From: a virus | Lineage: Duplodnaviria > Caudoviricetes | Direction: 5' to 3' (one strand) | IMG/VR virus record: IMGVR_UViG_3300048923_000295 | Location: 16,938-80,937 of that record | DNA length: 64,000 nt | Shown: one piece after another, positions 2,722-26,339 of the stretch | Numbering within the stretch: position 1 is the stretch's first letter | How the letters are laid out: every line of letters starts with the position of its first letter | Program-made: the position numbers and the translations under genes | Notes under the pieces: generated by a model | Told to the model about the DNA's origin: nothing | Database searches by the model: none | The model's input: only the letters and a program-made list of their open reading frames with translations

Positions 2722-3288
2722 ATGATCGAGGACACCACCAAGCGCGCCCCGATGCTCCACCTCCTCGGCGCCTTGTCCGACGGCCCCTCCGGCTACATCG
2801 AGGGCATGGAGGCCGGCGGCGGCCGGCAGCTCGCCGCCTCCGACCTCCTACCCACCGACCTCTCCCCAGCCGACGAGGGCGCCTGGACCGCGCTCGGGTT
2901 CACCCTCGGCGACACGGTCGACGGCGACCCCCTGTTCCGCCACGCCACCTTGCCGGAGGGCTGGACCCGCCGCTCCCACCAGGATCCGCGCGGCTCGGAC
3001 ATCCTCGACACCCGCGGCATCCCCAGGGTGTCGATCTTCTACAAGGCGGCGTTCTACGACCGGCGGGCGTCCGCGAGCATCGTCAACGTCGGTTCCGTCG
3101 TCGCGAACACCGCGATCTACGACGACGGCGACTACATGATCCCCTGGGATCTGCTGACCGCCGACGAGACGGCGACCGTCGTCCGTGTGCTCGACGAGTA
3201 CCTCGCCGACGTCGCCGACTATCCGGGCACCCACGGTCAGCGCGTTCCCCGCGTGCAGGCGCTCCGCAGCTCGGCGCCGTCCACCTGA
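2722..3288 (+). CDS. conserved hypothetical phage protein
   Basis: AAGGA SD; DPLF..ATLPEGW...RVSIFYKAAFYDR pattern, which I recall from many phage proteins. Confidence 0.75.
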   Translation: MIEDTTKRAPMLHLLGALSDGPSGYIEGMEAGGGRQLAASDLLPTDLSPADEGAWTALGFTLGDTVDGDPLFRHATLPEGWTRRSHQDPRGSDILDTRGIPRVSIFYKAAFYDRRASASIVNVGSVVANTAIYDDGDYMIPWDLLTADETATVVRVLDEYLADVADYPGTHGQRVPRVQALRSSAPST

Positions 3289-3423
3289 GACCGGCCGTCC
3301 GGCCCGGCCCTGTCTCCCCGGGCCGGACGGCCACCCCCGGTTCTGTTCCACCGTCTCCCGGTCTCGGCACCCCCCGAGCCGGGCCGGGAGGCGGCGGTAC
3401 AGAACCGACCCGAGAGGACCACG

Positions 3424-3999
3424 ATGCGCTTCGCGTTGGAGCTGACCGGCGCCACACCGTTGGTCATGCACAACATCCGTCTGGCCGACGAAGACGACGA
3501 GATCGTCATGGAGATCAAGAAGCTGACGAGTAAGAAAACGAAGACGAAGCAGGACCGAGACGAAATCGGCCGCTTGGAGTGGTACGGCGGTCTCTACACC
3601 GACCAGGGGAAGGTGGTGATGCCGACCGAGAACTTCAAGCGGTGCGTTGCCGAGATTGCCAAGGTTCGGAAGCTCGGCAAGGCGGTCGAGCGGGCGATGT
3701 TGCCCCTCGACGGTCTTCACGTTCCACTCATCCACGATGGCCCGCAGTCCCTCGAAGAACTGTGCTCCTCCGACGTCTACCGACTCAGGAAGTCGGTGGG
3801 CGTGATGGGCAGGCGTGTTACGCGAGTCAGGCCGCGATTCCCGGCCTGGGGCCTGACGCTGTCCGTGGAACTGCTGGCGGACGTCATGGACCCTGGCACC
3901 TTTGTCGACCTCGTCCATCTCGCCGGCCGCGCCGAGGGCCTTGGCGACGGAAGGCGCATCGGCTATGGACGATTCTCGGCCACGATAAAGGAGGTATGA
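3424..3999 (+). CDS. stand-alone RAMP / Cas7-like protein (candidate guide-RNA-binding filament subunit; Vipr-like)
   Basis: N-terminal strand FALELTGATPLVMHN, central LEWYGGLY...VMPTENFKRCV, RVRPRFPAW, and C-terminal Gly-rich loop GLGDGRRIGYGRF typical of RAMP/Cas7 folds. No cas1/cas2/cas3 or CRISPR array in the window. Confidence 0.8.
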   Translation: MRFALELTGATPLVMHNIRLADEDDEIVMEIKKLTSKKTKTKQDRDEIGRLEWYGGLYTDQGKVVMPTENFKRCVAEIAKVRKLGKAVERAMLPLDGLHVPLIHDGPQSLEELCSSDVYRLRKSVGVMGRRVTRVRPRFPAWGLTLSVELLADVMDPGTFVDLVHLAGRAEGLGDGRRIGYGRFSATIKEV

Positions 4000-4020
4000 T
4001 GCTGAAGCAGGCCGCCGCCA

Positions 4021-4090
4021 GGACCGGCATGGCTAGGCGGGGCTCGGCCTGGTTGGGCCAGGCATTGCGCGGTAAGGCTGGGTTGGGCGG
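4021..4090 (+). ncRNA. GGY-NN pentamer array 1 (candidate guide RNA)
   Basis: GGA-CC GGC-AT GGC-TA GGC-GG GGC-TC GGC-CT GGT-TG GGC-CA GGC-AT TGC-GC GGT-AA GGC-TG GGT-TG GGC-GG: 14 units in phase. Confidence 0.8.
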
Positions 4091-4099
4091 TGGGCTGGC

Positions 4100-4612
4100 G
4101 TGAGCCCGTTCACCGCCCGCAGCCCCGACGGCCGCTCGGAATGGCAGATCGTCCGCGACCTCATCGCCACCTACAGCCTGAAGCCGGGCGACATCCTCCC
4201 CTACCACGATCTCCACGTCGCCCTGAACAGGGACGAGGAAGAGCGGCAGGCCGTCCAACGGGCCGCCCGCGAAGCCTCACGACACATGCTCCAGCTCGAC
4301 AAGAGATGCCTGGTCCCGGTGCCGAACGAGGGCTACCGGCTGGCGCTCCCCAGCGAGCACGTGCGCGTCGCCAAGGAACGGGAGGCGCGGGGGGTCCGCC
4401 AGTTCGCCCGAGCGATCAAGGTGTACGACGGCACCCCGCTCGACGAACTGAAGCCCGCCGAGCGCGAACTTCACCTCAACACCTCCATGCTCGCCAAGAC
4501 CGCTTTCGCCGCTCTCGATGATCACGAGAAGAGGCTACGGAGACTGGAAAATGTGATCGGTGGGATCGCCGGACCCAAAATCATTGATCACGACCCGGAA
4601 GAGATAGTGTAA
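4100..4612 (+). CDS. accessory protein embedded in the RAMP/array locus (predicted winged-helix N-terminus, helical or coiled-coil C-terminus)
   Basis: 170 aa; LKPGDILPYHDL..., LVPVPNEGYRL resembles a wing; C-terminal DDHEKRLRRLENVI looks like a coiled coil. Confidence 0.75.
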   Translation: MSPFTARSPDGRSEWQIVRDLIATYSLKPGDILPYHDLHVALNRDEEERQAVQRAAREASRHMLQLDKRCLVPVPNEGYRLALPSEHVRVAKEREARGVRQFARAIKVYDGTPLDELKPAERELHLNTSMLAKTAFAALDDHEKRLRRLENVIGGIAGPKIIDHDPEEIV

Positions 4613-4626
4613 AGAACACAGTTCTG

Positions 4627-4700
4627 GGCCGCGCAGGTTAGGGCGGGGCCCGGCTAGGCGGGGCTGCGCTAGGCAGGTCCCGGCGGGGAAGGGAAGGCTG
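4627..4700 (+). ncRNA. GGY-NN pentamer array 2
   Basis: GGC-CG CGC-AG GTT-AG GGC-GG GGC-CC GGC-TA GGC-GG GGC-TG CGC-TA GGC-AG GTC-CC GGC-GG ..., ending AAGGCTGGGG (one 1-nt slip). Confidence 0.7.
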
Positions 4701-4702
4701 GG

Positions 4703-4770
4703 GCGCTTTCATGCGCGGGTGGCGGGCAGGCATCAACGTTCGAGCCGTTGACACCCACGGCCGAAAGGCC
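4703..4770 (+). ncRNA. tRNA-like spacer module A
   Basis: GCGC-tttcat-GCGC hairpin; GGGTG/CACCC stem; TCAACG-TTCGAGC-CGTTGA T-arm; GGCC-GAAA-GGCC tetraloop. Confidence 0.75.
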
Positions 4771-4781
4771 GATTAACTCGC

Positions 4782-4841
4782 GGCGTGGCTTGGCCCGGCT
4801 CGGCAAGGCGAGGCGGGGCGAGGCGCGGCGTGGTGAGGCTG
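4782..4841 (+). ncRNA. GGY-NN pentamer array 3
   Basis: 12 of 12 perfect GGY units; NN = GT TT CC TC AA GA GG GA GC GT GA TG. Confidence 0.85.
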
Positions 4842-4843
4842 GG

Positions 4844-4911
4844 GCGCTTTCATGCGCGGGAGGCTGGCAGCCATCGGGGTTCGAGGCCCCGACTCCCACG
4901 GTCGCAAGACC
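4844..4911 (+). ncRNA. tRNA-like spacer module B
   Basis: GCGC-tttcat-GCGC; GGGAG/CTCCC; TCGGGG-TTCGAGG-CCCCGA; GGTC-GCAA-GACC. Confidence 0.75.
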
Positions 4912-4923
4912 GATTCAGGTAAA

Positions 4924-4988
4924 GGCGCGGCTAGGTCAGGCTCGGCCGGGCGAGGCACGGCATGGCATGGCTGGGCCGGGGAAGGCTG
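4924..4988 (+). ncRNA. GGY-NN pentamer array 4
   Basis: GGC-GC GGC-TA GGT-CA(G) GGC-TC GGC-CG GGC-GA GGC-AC GGC-AT GGC-AT GGC-TG GGC-C GGG-AA GGC-TG (two 1-nt slips). Confidence 0.8.
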
Positions 4989-4990
4989 GG

Positions 4991-5059
4991 GCATCTTCGG
5001 ATGCGGGCGGATGGCATACACGCGGGGTTCGAGTCCCCGGCGCCCACGGCCGAAAGGCC
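4991..5059 (+). ncRNA. tRNA-like spacer module C
   Basis: GCATC-TTCG-GATGC; GGGCG/CGCCC; CGGGG-TTCGAGT-CCCCG; GGCC-GAAA-GGCC. Confidence 0.75.
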
Positions 5060-5064
5060 AGCAC

Positions 5065-5144
5065 GGTTCAGACTGGCGGGGCCGGGATAGGTGTGGCACC
5101 GCTGGGCGCGTCTAGGCGCGGCGCCGCTGGGCCTGGCAAAGCTG
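5065..5144 (+). ncRNA. GGY-NN pentamer array 5
   Basis: In phase every 5 nt from 5065; from 5075 NN = GG CG TA GT AC TG GC TA GC GC TG CT AA TG. Confidence 0.75.
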
Positions 5145-5147
5145 GGA

Positions 5148-5178
5148 GCGGGGGGGCGACTCGAAGTCGCCCCCCCGC
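5148..5178 (+). terminator. 13-bp hairpin closing the array locus
   Basis: GCGGGGGGGCGAC-TCGAA-GTCGCCCCCCCGC, perfect stem. Confidence 0.7.
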
Positions 5179-5319
5179 ATTCAAAGCAATTTGAACACAT
5201 CCGAGAGGACCCCTGTTGCGCGTTCGTCTCCGCCGTGCCGCCTGCCGCTGCCGACATCGCCGACGACCTGCTCGACCTCGTCACCGACCTGATCACCCGC
5301 TGACCGAACGGAACCGATC

Positions 5320-7313: not shown

Positions 7314-9599
7314 TCAAGCGGCGGCACCGGCCAGCCAGGCGGGCACCGTGTCCGGCGCCTTCGCGAAGCTCGGGCAGGCGGTCACGTCCAGCGCGTTCCG
7401 CGCCCGCGTCACTGCGACGTACAGGAGCATCAGCTCGTCCGCGTTGCCGTCGAGCTGGCCGGGCGGCGGGAAGTCCGCGGCGAGCTTCACCGTGTCCCAC
7501 TCCAGCCCCTTGACGCAGTGCACGGTGCCCACCGTGACGTCCGCAGCCCGCAGGTCGGACAGATCCGCCAGCCCCGCGATGATCGCCTCCGGGCCGAAGT
7601 CCTCGACCAGCTTCACGAGCAGCGCAATGTCACTGCCGAGCTCGTCGAACTCGCAGTTGTGGGAGAGCAGGCCCTCGGCGATGAAGGTGCGGGCGTCCGT
7701 ACGTACAGCGACGACCTCGCGCTCTCCCACGTACTCGACATTGACGACCTTGGTCCGGGGGGTGCGGCCAATCTGGCGACGCTCCCACAAGCCTCCGGCC
7801 GCCGCGACTAGGCGCTCAGGGCGCGTAGTACCCAGCAGGCGCAGCTGCTCGGAGAGCCCTCCTCGTATGACAAGTTGCCGCACCTCGCTTGGGGCGCTGC
7901 CATGCGCGTAGTCGCCGAACTCGAAGCCTCGGTCCTTGAGCAAGGAACGAACCCGCTCAAGCACCGGCCCCTCCTTCTGAGAGATTGACAAGTGACGGTT
8001 GCGGCTGCTCTCACCCCGGCAGCCAGCGGACCCCTCACCGTCGAACATGCCCGCCAACCAGCCGGCATCCTTGGTGTCTTCCTCCTCCCACCGCCCGAGA
8101 GTCAGGATCGGCGTGCCGGGCGAGAGCCGCTCCGTGTGCATCCAACGGAGGTTGTTGCCTTGCTGGACGATCCAGCGATGCTCGGCACTCGCTGTGACCG
8201 TGGTGCCGTCGTCCGTGGTGATGCGGTAGCACGGCCTAGTGATGGTCTTGACACTCTCCACGACGGCCGTCCGATACCGGCGTCCTCGCGCATCCGCCGG
8301 CGTCTCCTCATCGAAACCTACGAGACGGTCGCCCGGCTCCAGAGTGTCAATGGTCTGCCAGCGAAGATCTGAGGTGAGCACTCTCGTCTCTGGCGCGAGA
8401 CAGTAATCCTGCACCTGCCCCCACGTCGAGAAGCAGGACAGCTCCGGGTGCGCCGTCCACCCTTGGTCGCGGAGCTCGATCGCACCGCGGGCGAAGGAGA
8501 CGACGGCCTGCGCCGTGTTCCCCACCAAGTGGACCTTCCTTCCGGCCTTCATCAGCGTCAGCGCCTCGGACACGGCCGTCGCATTGGTGCGGCAGAGGAT
8601 CGCGTCGATCATCTCGCACGGGCCGATGTAACCGGCTTCGTCGTCGCTGCCGGGCCTGCCCTTGAGCCGCAGGGGGGTGTCGAGCTGGGCGAGGAGGGTG
8701 TTCGCGAAGTCGGCGAGGTCCTGACCGAACCGGAACGACTGGGACAGGTAGGCGGTGCGGTCGACCTCGATGTTCTTGAAGGCGTCCAGGCAGCCGTTGA
8801 ACGAGTTGATCGCCTGGGCCGAGTCGCCTACCAGTACCACGCGGCTGCCGAGCTGCATCTGCTTCTTGATGATCGAAAGCATGATCGGACTCATGTCCTG
8901 CGCCTCGTCGATCATGAGAATTTCGGCGCCGATCCACGGCATCCGCCGCACACCCGGCCGCGACGGGTGCAGCCCCAGCTCCCACATCTTCAGGAAGTGC
9001 GCCGGGCTGTACGGCAGGACCCCGTTCGTCTTCTGCGCGTCCTCCCACGCACGGTTCAGCGCCGGGAGCATCCGCGCCCGGAGCATGTCGTTGGCCTTGT
9101 AGGTGCGCTTCCCAGTCGCCGAGTCGGGGGCGTCGATCCCGTCCACATACCGGAAATGGTCGACACTGGGCGCCTCGGCGTCGGACTGGCAGAACCGGCC
9201 GAGCGCCCGCAGCACGTAGGACGCGAGCCACGCCGGACGCAGCGCCCGCGATCCCCCACCGATCTGCGGCACCCACACCGGCTCGTTGATGCCGAGCGCC
9301 TTCGCGTTCTCCGCCGAGGTGCGCCGCACGTTCGACCGTCCGGAGAACTCCCGGCCGACCGCGTCGAACGCGAATCCGTGCATCGTCCGGACCCGCACGT
9401 TCCGGCCCATCTTGCCCTTCTGCTCCTGGCAGATGGCCTTGTTGAACGCCGTGTAGGCGACCCGCCGGTCCCGGTATTCGTGGGCGATCGCGCGGAGCAC
9501 CGTCGACTTTCCGCAGCCTGCCCCGGCCTGGATGGCGAGGTGGCCGCCTTCAGCGAACAGGTCGATGGCCTTCTGCTGCTCGGGTGTGGGCTGGAACAT
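7314..9599 (-). CDS. UvrD/Rep-like SF1 helicase containing an intein
   Basis: PTPEQ..., Walker A QAGAGCGKS, MIDEAQD, LVGDSAQAI, SQSFRFG, TVHCVKGLEWD, LYVAVTRAR. Confidence 0.9.
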   Translation of the reverse strand: MFQPTPEQQKAIDLFAEGGHLAIQAGAGCGKSTVLRAIAHEYRDRRVAYTAFNKAICQEQKGKMGRNVRVRTMHGFAFDAVGREFSGRSNVRRTSAENAKALGINEPVWVPQIGGGSRALRPAWLASYVLRALGRFCQSDAEAPSVDHFRYVDGIDAPDSATGKRTYKANDMLRARMLPALNRAWEDAQKTNGVLPYSPAHFLKMWELGLHPSRPGVRRMPWIGAEILMIDEAQDMSPIMLSIIKKQMQLGSRVVLVGDSAQAINSFNGCLDAFKNIEVDRTAYLSQSFRFGQDLADFANTLLAQLDTPLRLKGRPGSDDEAGYIGPCEMIDAILCRTNATAVSEALTLMKAGRKVHLVGNTAQAVVSFARGAIELRDQGWTAHPELSCFSTWGQVQDYCLAPETRVLTSDLRWQTIDTLEPGDRLVGFDEETPADARGRRYRTAVVESVKTITRPCYRITTDDGTTVTASAEHRWIVQQGNNLRWMHTERLSPGTPILTLGRWEEEDTKDAGWLAGMFDGEGSAGCRGESSRNRHLSISQKEGPVLERVRSLLKDRGFEFGDYAHGSAPSEVRQLVIRGGLSEQLRLLGTTRPERLVAAAGGLWERRQIGRTPRTKVVNVEYVGEREVVAVRTDARTFIAEGLLSHNCEFDELGSDIALLVKLVEDFGPEAIIAGLADLSDLRAADVTVGTVHCVKGLEWDTVKLAADFPPPGQLDGNADELMLLYVAVTRARNALDVTACPSFAKAPDTVPAWLAGAAA
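7656..8402 (-). mobile_element. intein (249 aa) with a LAGLIDADG-type endonuclease motif
   Basis: Starts CLAPETRVLT, has TASAEHRW (block B), WLAGMFDGEGS, ends FIAEGLLSHN followed by Cys+1. Confidence 0.92.
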
Positions 9600-9908: not shown

Positions 9909-10250
9909 ATGGCCCAGAAGACCTTCGTCAGCCTGGTCTGCGACATCACCGGGGAGGAGGCTGCCGAGACGGTGCGATTCAGCCTCGACGGCGCCCAGTA
10001 CGAGATCGACCTGACCGGGCCGAGGGCGGACGAGCTTCGCGGCGCCCTGGCGCCGTTCATCACCGCAGGACGCCGGCAGGGCGCGAAGCCGGCCCGACGT
10101 CGCAGTGGCGGCGCGACCGCGCCGAGGGCGACCAGCGGAACCGCGGACGTCCGCGAGTGGGCCCGCGAACAGGGAATCGAGGTGTCCGACCGGGGCCGGA
10201 TCTCCCGGGAGATCCTCACCCAGTACGAGGCGGCACAGACCCCCGCCTGA
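9909..10250 (+). CDS. lsr2: Lsr2 nucleoid-associated protein
   Basis: ETVRFSLDGAQYEIDLT...LRGALAPFITAGRR and C-terminal VREWAREQGIEVSDRGRIS. Confidence 0.95.
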   Translation: MAQKTFVSLVCDITGEEAAETVRFSLDGAQYEIDLTGPRADELRGALAPFITAGRRQGAKPARRRSGGATAPRATSGTADVREWAREQGIEVSDRGRISREILTQYEAAQTPA

Positions 10251-16857: not shown

Positions 16858-17405
16858 CCATCGCCCTGGCTGGAACGATCACGACCCTGTACCGCATGTA
16901 TGACGAGGCTGGCACGCTGCTCTACGTGGGCATCAGTAACCGGCCCCTCGACCGCAAGGGCCAGCACAAGCACGACAAGCCGTGGTGGACCGAAGTAGCG
17001 ACCATGACCCTGGAGCACTACCCGACGCGCCAGGCAGCAGCGCACGCAGAGGCGATCGCGATAGCAGGCGAAGCTCCCCGGTACAACAAGGCTGGCACGC
17101 CCGACTTCGAGCAGGCACGTCACGCGCCCCGCGCGCGGCTGGTCGCAGAGGCGCCTGTCATCGCCCGGCTGTTCTCTCATCCCGAGCCGGACACCCGGCA
17201 CAGGCCGACGGGCCTACTGATGGGCCTCCAGGAGATCGAAAAGAAGCTAGGCGTCTCTCGCCAACGGGTCCACCAGCTCACAGACCACCCAAACTTTCCG
17301 CCCGCCTATGACGTGATCAAGGCAGGCCGAATCTGGCGCACCGAGGACATCGAGGGCAGGATGCGCCGCACCGGGCGGACGCCAGCGAAGGAGGGTTCGC
17401 AGTGA
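16854..17405 (+). CDS. GIY-YIG nuclease-family protein fused to a C-terminal AlpA-like HTH
   Basis: TLYRMYDEAGTLLYVGISN..DR..QH...KPWW...E..AI..E.P.YN; C-terminal LMGLQEIEKKLGVSRQRVHQL...FP. Confidence 0.85.
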   Translation: MTIALAGTITTLYRMYDEAGTLLYVGISNRPLDRKGQHKHDKPWWTEVATMTLEHYPTRQAAAHAEAIAIAGEAPRYNKAGTPDFEQARHAPRARLVAEAPVIARLFSHPEPDTRHRPTGLLMGLQEIEKKLGVSRQRVHQLTDHPNFPPAYDVIKAGRIWRTEDIEGRMRRTGRTPAKEGSQ

Positions 17406-25184: not shown

Positions 25185-26339
25185 ATGGCCTCACACGGGC
25201 CGAAGTGCGCCGCGATCACCCTCAAAGGGCTGCCGTGTAAGAACCGGGCCCGGCCAGGCTCCCCCTACTGCGGCGTCCACAAGAACTACAAGGGCGGCCA
25301 GCACGCCGCCCAGGCGGCCGCCGCCCCGAAGCTCGCGCACCTTGCGGGGAAGGCGAAGCCGACCGCGACCCACCCGCCCGCGGCCCCGCCAACACCAGCA
25401 GCGCCCCCACCGGCCGCCCAGGCCATCCCGCACGACCTCGACGCCACCCCCTACCGGTCCAGCGGCCCGAAACGCACCGTCGGCGCCTACATCAGCCGCC
25501 TCGCCGCCGACCCGAAGGCCCGCGCGCAGACGAAGACGAAACAGGCCGCCCTCGACGACGGTCTCGTGCACACCGACCCGTCGGGCAGCCTGGTCCTCAC
25601 CCCGAAGGGCCATCAGCTCGCCGGCGAACTCGCCATGAAACCGAAACCGAAGCTGGCCGCGCTCGCCAAGCCGAAACCGGTCGGCCCGCTACCCGCTGCC
25701 GTGGCCGCCGCCCAGAACACCCCGAAGCCGCCACCGAAGGGCGCCCCGCCGCCGCTGCTCGTCCCGGGCGCGGTCCACGGCCAGGACGACGTCATCGCCT
25801 ACATGACCGGCCACTCGAAGGCGGTCAGTTACACCGCCCAGCATCGAATGGCGACCCGCACCTACACCACCCCCGTCTACCGGGAAATCAACGGCAACCT
25901 TCGTCACGGAAGCTGGGCGTCGCCTGCCGCGCAGAAGGCCATCGCCGGCCTCGACTCGGCGCTCCAAGCCACCCCACCACTCGACAAGCCGGTGATCACC
26001 CAGCGGGGTATCCGCTTCTACCGCGACGTCCTCGGCGACGTGAAAGTCGGCGACACCATCCACGACAAAGGTTTCATGTCGACGTCGGTGGACCGGAACC
26101 ACGCCTACTACTACGCGACGAAACGCGGCCACGCCAACCAGGCCGCCCTGATGAACATCACCATCCCGCCAGGAGTGCGCGCGCTCAGCATCCTCCCACC
26201 GGCCCCGCCGAACCTCCCCCCGAAATATGGCACCGAACATGAGGTGCTGCTGCCCCGCGGCACGTCCCTGCGGGTCGACCGGATCGTCCGCAACGCGCAG
26301 GGCGTCACGTTCATCGACGCGACCGTGGTCCCCGCCTGA
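25185..26339 (+). CDS. ADP-ribosyltransferase 2 (paralog of ART1)
   Basis: Same N-terminal zinc finger; TYTTPVYREINGNLR; TQRGI; GFMSTS; EHEVLLPRG. Confidence 0.9.
   Translation: MASHGPKCAAITLKGLPCKNRARPGSPYCGVHKNYKGGQHAAQAAAAPKLAHLAGKAKPTATHPPAAPPTPAAPPPAAQAIPHDLDATPYRSSGPKRTVGAYISRLAADPKARAQTKTKQAALDDGLVHTDPSGSLVLTPKGHQLAGELAMKPKPKLAALAKPKPVGPLPAAVAAAQNTPKPPPKGAPPPLLVPGAVHGQDDVIAYMTGHSKAVSYTAQHRMATRTYTTPVYREINGNLRHGSWASPAAQKAIAGLDSALQATPPLDKPVITQRGIRFYRDVLGDVKVGDTIHDKGFMSTSVDRNHAYYYATKRGHANQAALMNITIPPGVRALSILPPAPPNLPPKYGTEHEVLLPRGTSLRVDRIVRNAQGVTFIDATVVPA

Follow-up and report, generated by a model that had tools for sequence, protein, structure and literature searches.

What is encoded by five tracts of a GGY-NN unit, in which a constant triplet alternates with two changing bases, next to a small gene of a metagenomic provirus? 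The tracts lie at 4026–5144 of a 64,000-nt window (the whole stretch of DNA analyzed here, positions 16,938 to 80,937 of IMG/VR record IMGVR_UViG_3300048923_000295), and an earlier note on this DNA had read their NN strings as guides to gapped DNA targets of the form NNxNNx. With a probability of about 85%, we assign window 3424–5178 to a VIPR (Viral Interference Programmable Repeat) locus of the vipr plus vap1 kind, carried by an integrated actinobacterial phage. This assignment is based on protein homology, array form, the tails of the arrays, gene content, the viral setting and the lack of self-targets. Coordinates are window positions throughout, unless the label of a relative (L001, L002 etc.) precedes them.

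VIPR is a phage system of RNA-guided DNA silencing, described in preprints from April to October 2026 (10.64898/2026.04.26.720920; 10.64898/2026.04.26.720927; 10.64898/2026.10.15.759431). Its protein, Vipr, is a minimal, single-RRM RAMP found for the most part in phages and proviruses, and the locus further comprises one accessory gene (vap) and vrRNAs of 9–16 GGY/NN units with a structured 3′ tail (10.64898/2026.04.26.720920). According to the preprints, one Vipr protomer binds per unit and sequesters the GGY, and the NN pair with a DNA strand such that exactly one target base is skipped per unit, as shown experimentally; in most cases this base occupies a codon wobble position. Targets may lie on either strand of double-stranded DNA, no protospacer-adjacent motif is needed, and binding silences transcription. 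Natural targets are satellites, rival prophages and sometimes other VIPR loci, and no self-target reaches 80% NN identity. Array architectures described so far are hammerhead-interspersed, staggered or single-vrRNA. The reading of NN strings as a gapped guide code has therefore been in the literature since April 2026, and the present locus does not constitute a new kind of system.

Five arrays of GGY-NN units with a shared 3′ end

A caller for GGYNN runs, applied to both strands of the whole 80,937-bp record, identified five strong arrays of 5-nt units, all on the + strand and each about 11–15 units long (intervals 4026–4090, 4627–4686, 4782–4841, 4924–4988 and 5065–5139/5144). The only other runs called were four weak ones of 6–8 units on the – strand, scoring 1.5–3 compared to 6–12 for the five arrays. 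The top run score of 12 compares with 3–5 in 20 first-order Markov simulations of the record. Across 62 units, the three anchor positions carry 1.42 (G), 1.72 (G) and 1.31 (Y) bits, the two N positions merely 0.04 and 0.06 bits, and all 16 NN dinucleotides occur. Given this bit profile, the full set of dinucleotides and a run score above that of the simulations, the tracts are real, non-random and not homogenized.

Array 1 is located between the two protein-coding genes of the locus and arrays 2–5 follow the second gene. The vrRNA1 tract (4026..4080, +) has 11 units with the NN string AT TA GG TC CT TG CA AT GC AA TG. The vrRNA2 tract (4627..4700, +) comprises about 15 units, several with an imperfect GGY, and one unit of 4 nt near the 3′ end. 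All 12 units of the vrRNA3 tract (4782..4841, +) have a perfect GGY and read GT TT CC TC AA GA GG GA GC GT GA TG, and the 13 units of the vrRNA4 tract (4924..4988, +) read GC TA CA TC CG GA AC AT AT TG CG AA TG. The vrRNA5 tract (5065..5144, +) holds 14–16 units, again several with an imperfect GGY, and reads (TC CT) GG CG TA GT AC TG GC TA GC GC TG CT AA TG. For arrays 1, 3 and 5, every letter of the strings in the earlier note is correct.

In every array the final two units are fixed, namely (A/G)A and then TG, followed by GG and a hairpin, so that the strings given above overstate the free guide content by about two units. These last two units are part of the handle and not of the free guide content. 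The claim that the GGY anchors alone are conserved consequently has to be amended: the anchors are indeed conserved (1.3–1.7 bits per position), but so are the NN of the last two units.

Might the tracts be no RNA genes at all, but a slippage-prone satellite or part of a coding frame? Open frames do run through them (148 codons at 4748–5194 and 35 codons at 3996–4103), and Tandem Repeats Finder reports periods of 5 and 15. Yet a period of 5 nt is incompatible with a reading frame, long frames commonly arise by chance at 71% G+C, and neither of the two frames has a family match. The layout, moreover, recurs beside vipr homologues in distant phages, with GGT replacing GGC in A+T-rich genomes. 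Since all 16 NN occur at about 0.05 bits, the units have not been homogenized by slippage, as the earlier note had argued, and we give this explanation next to no credence.

A minimal RAMP protein homologous to SUSP1 Vipr

The gene preceding array 1 (vipr, 3424..3999, +) encodes a 191-aa minimal RAMP protein with a glycine-rich loop of RAMP type, GLGDGRRIGYGRF, at its end. Its sole match among solved structures is PDB 36pp, 'SUSP1 Vipr protein' (E 1.4e-15 over residues 5–188, i.e. 184 residues), and it matches phrog_4652 at 2.2e-30; no family was found in Pfam, NCBIfam or PADLOC. An AlphaFold model built with 36 homologues reached a predicted local distance difference test score (pLDDT) of 97.7, and Foldseek, searched against a library older than the Vipr structure entry, aligned this model to Csm3, Cmr4 and type VII Cas7 at E values of about 1e-5. 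The protein is about 29% identical to that of a Felix-O1-like phage and belongs to a family of 2053 representative clusters at E <= 0.001.

Functional residues listed for SUSP1 Vipr (10.64898/2026.04.26.720927) were read off the alignment to 36pp. H17, K33, R39, E71 and K82 of SUSP1 correspond to H16, K32, K38, E69 and K80 here, and G87, K88, R138, D177 and R179 to G85, K86, R136, D175 and R177. The residues that read the GGY and hold the DNA strands are hence conserved or conservatively replaced, with the exception of W178.

These residues also bear on the possibility that the tracts are protein-binding RNA and nothing more, with Vipr polymerizing on the GGY in the manner of TRAP, the RNA acting as scaffold, sponge or regulator of vipr/vap, and the NN being meaningless spacers. 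A triplet plus two-base spacer, repeated in 11–15 units, does resemble TRAP sites; the NN are near uniform in composition and no target was found for them (see below); and array 1 is placed within the operon and extends over the vap start. Mere spacers would, however, sit poorly with the conservation of the DNA-contacting K33, R39, K82 and K88 (K32, K38, K80 and K86 here). Unselected spacers in a 71% G+C record would furthermore be expected to drift to G+C, whereas the NN bases are 46% A+T. In the homologous systems of SUSP1 and Pseudomonas fulva, changing the NN alone reprograms repression, and cryo-electron microscopy shows the pairing of NN with DNA (10.64898/2026.04.26.720920; 10.64898/2026.04.26.720927). 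We had initially considered this TRAP-like reading, dropped it upon the match to PDB 36pp and the VIPR papers, and now regard it as very unlikely.

A vap1-like partner gene next to vipr

The second gene (4100..4612, +; 170 aa) is assigned to phrog_5926 at 8.9e-09, as are the corresponding partner genes of phages wV8 (7e-76), LESphi2, LittleE and Trine. Sharing phrog_5926 with the wV8 partner places the locus in the vipr plus vap1 layout, called type II in the preprint, and by this sequence likeness we take the gene to be vap1-like. The protein returned nothing in Pfam, NCBIfam or PADLOC; a single-sequence fold was poor (pLDDT 45) and gave a helix-helix-helix-strand-strand order.

An open frame of 35 codons, read from the sequence and preceded by an AAGGAGG motif, runs through array 1 (3996..4103, +). 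The frame opens with an ATG that shares bases with the vipr stop (ATGA) and closes with a TGA that overlaps the GTG start of vap. Two relatives (L005 and L006) likewise hold an array between vipr and the next gene. The frame may couple the translation of vipr and vap, or may be incidental. A bolder extension would be that placing array 1 in a translated mini-frame between the two genes ties guide production to translation of the operon.

The gene–array association recurs in distant phages

A tblastn search with the 191-aa protein matched 34 phage records, among them Gordonia phage Trine, Mycobacterium phage LittleE, Pseudomonas phage LESphi2 and Felix-O1-like Escherichia and Salmonella phages. 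In all four records examined (Trine, LittleE, LESphi2 and wV8), a phrog_5926 gene follows the vipr homologue and GGYNN tracts adjoin the pair. More generally, 33 loci with a homologue were examined, from phages of Mycobacterium, Gordonia, Pseudomonas and Escherichia as well as IMG/VR contigs, and 28 of them have GGYNN arrays beside this gene. G+C-rich phages use GGC as the triplet, and wV8 uses GGT.

Inspection of these relatives revealed 'hypothetical proteins' in public phage records that overlie vrRNA arrays. LittleE gene 35 (L001 2557–2946) is annotated on the opposite strand of two arrays. Trine gene 40 (L002 3591–3887 for the part in question) starts about 300 nt too early, such that its 5′ part runs through two arrays; the Trine vap start is likely L002 3888. 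A further layout was seen in two IMG/VR relatives (L012 3249–5628 and L029 9384–11763), with six arrays upstream of vipr on the – strand and nine downstream on the + strand, diverging from the gene on both sides and separated solely by a 7-nt linker, CTACCTC(A/G). In Mycobacterium phage Quico (L084 2390–2640), about 50 consecutive GGC-NN units are located between the antirepressor region and two unannotated genes, whose products lack BLASTP similarity to the Vipr or Vap of the window; similar matches were obtained for Florinda, Brocalys, Donkeykong, Pippy, Clifton and LastJedi. Arrays of the Quico type may represent a divergent VIPR type or solo vrRNAs.

Structured tails and tRNA-like minihelices separate the vrRNAs

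Every tract is capped by (A/G)A-GGC-TG-GG and a hairpin. The hairpin after tract 1 (GGGCGGTG...CACCGCCC; 4084..4119, +) spans the vap start codon and folds at –36.8 kcal/mol (z –3.9), a stability that none of 200 shuffles attained. The vrRNA2 tail hairpin (4703..4716, +), GCGC-TTTCAT-GCGC, is set in a GG-hairpin-GG frame that is also found in LittleE, and LESphi2 has a GG-hairpin. Tail hairpins of vrRNA3 (4844–4857, +) and vrRNA4 (4991–5004, +; GCATC-TTCG-GATGC) follow, and between copies the tail stems show compensatory changes (GCGC/GCGC vs. GCATC/GATGC). The locus closes with a perfect 14-bp hairpin (5148..5178, +), an inverted repeat that forms the tail of vrRNA5 (fold z –6.1). Judged by its sequence, this hairpin is likely the transcription stop; no T run follows it, and it was not among the calls of a scan for U-tract terminators.

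After arrays 2, 3 and 4, the short tail hairpin is succeeded by a 5-bp stem enclosing a T-arm-like hairpin (loop TTCGAGN) and then by a GNRA hairpin. Minihelix 1 (4717..4757, +) has the acceptor-like stem GGGTG/CACCC around the T-arm CAACG-TTCGAGC-CGTTG, and is followed by the GNRA hairpin CGGCC-GAAA-GGCCG (4758..4771, +). Minihelix 2 (4858–4898, +) combines GGGAG/CTCCC with CGGGG-TTCGAGG-CCCCG, and minihelix 3 (5005–5046, +) GGGCG/CGCCC with CGGGG-TTCGAGT-CCCCG; their GNRA hairpins are located at 4899–4912 (+) and 5048–5059 (+). We aligned nine inter-array modules, three each from the window, LittleE and Trine. All nine share the 5-bp acceptor-like stem and a 5-bp T-stem with the loop TTCGANN, and 10 of 11 pairs display two-sided, pair-keeping changes across these nine copies from three phages.

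ARAGORN called no tRNA in the window; a full cloverleaf with anticodon arm is not present, only the acceptor-like stem and T-arm. Rfam yielded no family at or near its gathering score for the minihelices, the sole hint being mascRNA (tRNA-like) at 5006–5044 with an E value of 3.5, below threshold, and neither hammerhead nor any other ribozyme family scored in Rfam. RNase P and RNase Z need no more than an acceptor/T-arm minihelix as substrate, from which we infer that host tRNA enzymes cut the array transcript into vrRNAs. In the actinobacteriophage branch of VIPR (this provirus, LittleE and Trine), tRNA-like minihelices might accordingly punctuate the arrays and hand maturation to host RNase P/RNase Z, which would be a third solution beside hammerhead ribozymes and unpunctuated arrays; we advance this tentatively, at slightly less than even odds. 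In the VIPR texts searched, tRNA-like minihelices are not mentioned, although the accompanying figures and data tables may show them; the punctuation may be a new feature.

A lone minihelix of the same design (GGGAG...CGGGG-TTCGAGT-CCCCG...CTCCCA) was noticed in Streptomyces phage Zemlya (L083 1500–1545) and, among 76 matched records, in dozens of related Streptomyces phages. It is 82% identical to the window module and located just upstream of an Ocr-like antirestriction gene, with no GGYNN array nearby.

Searches for guide targets

The five guides were scanned at gaps of 0–3 on both strands, with 60–100 shuffled guides as null. Within the 81-kb provirus, the best scores were 14–20 of 22–30 at gaps 0–2, inside the range of shuffled guides, and the only significant matches were trivial self-matches at gap 3. 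Nothing exceeded shuffled guides in the Vipr loci (n = 33; 401 kb) or in 130 kb of Frankia-order regions around terminase matches (one of them 100 kb), and no other match of >= 80% NN identity occurred in any scan.

Larger collections gave a similar picture. In IMG/VR, exact one-base-skip patterns of all five guides had 0 matches. Seeds of 8 units had 16 matches there for vrRNA3 and 12 for vrRNA5; their extension agreed at chance level (best 19/24 and 21/28), and the contigs were of unsuitable composition and held no match to a second guide. A 9-unit vrRNA4 seed had one match in one scan of a metagenome collection, with 3 of the 8 remaining positions agreeing. At full length and with <=3 mismatches, vrRNA3 had 0 matches in 56 Frankia-order genomes and vrRNA4 had 0 in 371 evenly drawn Actinomycetes genomes, as did the reversed controls (0 in both sets). 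The gapped-pattern search by which the earlier note had wanted its guide reading checked thus returned no enrichment over shuffled or reversed controls at gaps 0, 1 and 2.

This negative result reflects a limit of coverage and is not a refutation: the provirus is known from metagenomes only, and its host and community fell outside the scans. The note's gapped NNxNNx targets equal the published VIPR mechanism and are supported for this locus by homology only; no target matched in the scans. The same applies to its suggestion of competing phages or elements, which are the published target class of VIPR and had no match here.

The searches likewise inform the question of whether the locus is a genuine VIPR system whose guides are aimed at host chromosomal genes or at self-regulation of the phage, and not at competing mobile elements. 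Some self-regulation of the operon is conceivable, as the hairpin that follows array 1 extends over the start of vap; the target class for this phage is not established, and the host genome was outside the scans. Set against this, no site in the 81-kb provirus rose above shuffled guides at gaps 0–2, the two guides tried on 427 actinobacterial genomes found no matches, and satellites or prophages account for 18 of 20 and 48 of 66 targeted vrRNAs in published clades (10.64898/2026.04.26.720920). Guides directed at the host or the phage itself are in our estimation unlikely.

The NN composition was also examined under the assumption that targets are coding sequences of similar composition. Codon statistics from 47 provirus genes (G+C of 0.70, 0.53 and 0.90 at the first, second and third codon position, respectively) were compared with the NN in each phase. 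The two phases that skip the wobble position beat the four other coding phases by 26–37 log2 units in total, and the best coding phase of each guide is one of these two.

Weighing the assignment

Several observations weigh against the assignment to VIPR or parts of it. In the databases scanned, none of the five guides matched a natural target. W178 of SUSP1, which stacks on the second G, is a glycine here (G176). Arrays 2 and 5 hold several imperfect GGY units, and the tail is a simple hairpin, where a pseudoknot has been described in the SUSP1 clade. The minihelix modules have folding energies like those of shuffles (z –1.5 to +0.2), so that it is covariation that speaks for these modules. 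The codon model, finally, describes the NN composition slightly less well than a uniform NN model. The wobble-phase fit is for this reason only a consistency check, indicating that the NN avoid the G+C-rich wobble composition and not demonstrating coding targets; a tendency of the skipped base to fall on the wobble position, which the earlier note had suggested, is published for VIPR and would extend to this locus by homology only.

With these points taken into account, we favor the VIPR reading, in which the gapped-guide mechanism is carried over to this locus from its homologues. In this model, the + strand would be transcribed into five vrRNAs, each consisting of 11–15 GGY-NN units, the (A/G)A-GGC-TG-GG junction and a hairpin tail. 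Minihelices between the vrRNAs would recruit host RNase P and RNase Z, by which the array transcript would be cut into single vrRNAs. By analogy with characterized systems, one Vipr protomer would bind the RNA at each unit, hiding the GGY and exposing the NN, and the exposed bases would pair with a single strand of the DNA duplex, with one target base passed over in each unit (NNxNNx...). Binding would silence transcription of the bound gene, which, if such targets exist, would most likely belong to another mobile element sharing the host, such as a rival phage or a satellite; the target class, like RNA binding, one-base skip and silencing, is taken from the literature on homologues. Vap1 would assist the silencing.

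Phage setting of the locus

The IMG/VR record is a provirus of 80,937 bp, 87% complete and of 71% G+C, with genes for an integrase, antirepressor, Lsr2, helicase, terminase, capsid and lysin. Identical copies were found in two metagenome assemblies only, and the genome collection holds no close relative of the Vipr protein. The phage Lsr2-like nucleoid protein (9909–10250) has Lsr2 of Frankia and Parafrankia as nearest genomic relatives found (58–59% identity), a likeness that may serve as a hint, and the sole one, to the host lineage. The terminase shows about 50% identity to three Frankia-order genomes and about 69% at the DNA level to Streptomyces phages.

Ahead of the VIPR operon, an imperfect palindrome of about 74 nt (3336–3409) lies between the upstream gene (2722–3288) and the vipr start. 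The palindrome matched 'mir-3160' on either strand, far below threshold (E 0.3–0.4), and may be a terminator or operator. Elsewhere in the window, the stretch directly before the terminase genes (25185–26339) encodes a protein of 384 aa that contains an ADP-ribosyltransferase exoenzyme domain (PF03496, E 2.8e-17). In a UvrD-like helicase (7314–9599, –; 761 aa), residues 510–558 weakly match LAGLIDADG_3; this stretch may be an intein or a homing-endonuclease insertion.

Implications

The locus extends the characterized type II layout to high-G+C actinobacterial phages, and its tRNA-like array punctuation suggests host-dependent guide maturation. LittleE and Trine are cultivable, with Mycobacterium smegmatis and Gordonia terrae as hosts for testing. 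Once found, the targets would reveal the elements that compete with the phage in a soil-type community.

Comparison with known systems

In layout, the arrays resemble the binding sites of TRAP, which consist of 11 GAG/UAG triplets separated by 2–3 nt. Both have about 11 conserved triplets with two variable bases between them and one subunit per triplet. The resemblance is one of layout only: TRAP forms a closed ring and has no relation to RAMPs, and the spacers in its sites are uninformative. The minihelices, in turn, recall mascRNA at the 3′ end of MALAT1 and tRNA-punctuated transcripts, where an acceptor/T-arm mimic at the border of an RNA lets RNase P or RNase Z set the ends. Compared to such signals, the window module lacks D and anticodon arms and is not detected by ARAGORN, and its cleavage is putative.

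Class 1 CRISPR backbones (the Cas7 proteins Csm3, Cmr4 and type VII Cas7) share with Vipr the RAMP fold, the glycine-rich loop and thumb, the binding of one protomer per fixed RNA step and the regular flipping-out of target bases. The step differs: in a VIPR unit, 5 nt of guide, of which 2 pair, face 3 nt of target, whereas the step of Cas7 is 6 nt with 5 pairing. In contrast to CRISPR, the locus has no repeat-spacer array, no other cas genes and no adaptation module, and the output of VIPR is silencing and not cleavage according to the literature. No repeats of about 25–40 nt were found in the region, and neighboring genes contain no Cas families in Pfam, NCBIfam or PADLOC.

Within VIPR, the hammerhead-interspersed arrays of types I and V (10.64898/2026.04.26.720920, legend to fig. 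S19) likewise place a structured module between vrRNAs, presumably separating them. The module of the window is an acceptor/T-arm minihelix instead, which would not cleave itself and would need host enzymes.

The closest counterparts are the type II systems of Escherichia phage SUSP1 and of a Pseudomonas fulva prophage (10.64898/2026.04.26.720920; 10.64898/2026.04.26.720927; PDB 36pp). Shared with them are a vipr gene followed by a phrog_5926 gene, multiple vrRNAs of 9–16 GGY-NN units upstream and downstream with structured 3′ tails, a phage or provirus setting, conserved RNA- and DNA-contacting residues, and the lack of a self-target. The locus departs from them in using GGC and not GGT, in a GG-hairpin-GG tail in place of the pseudoknot, in the tRNA-like minihelices and GNRA hairpins between vrRNAs, in the array placed between vipr and vap within a small open frame, and in the replacement of W178 by glycine.

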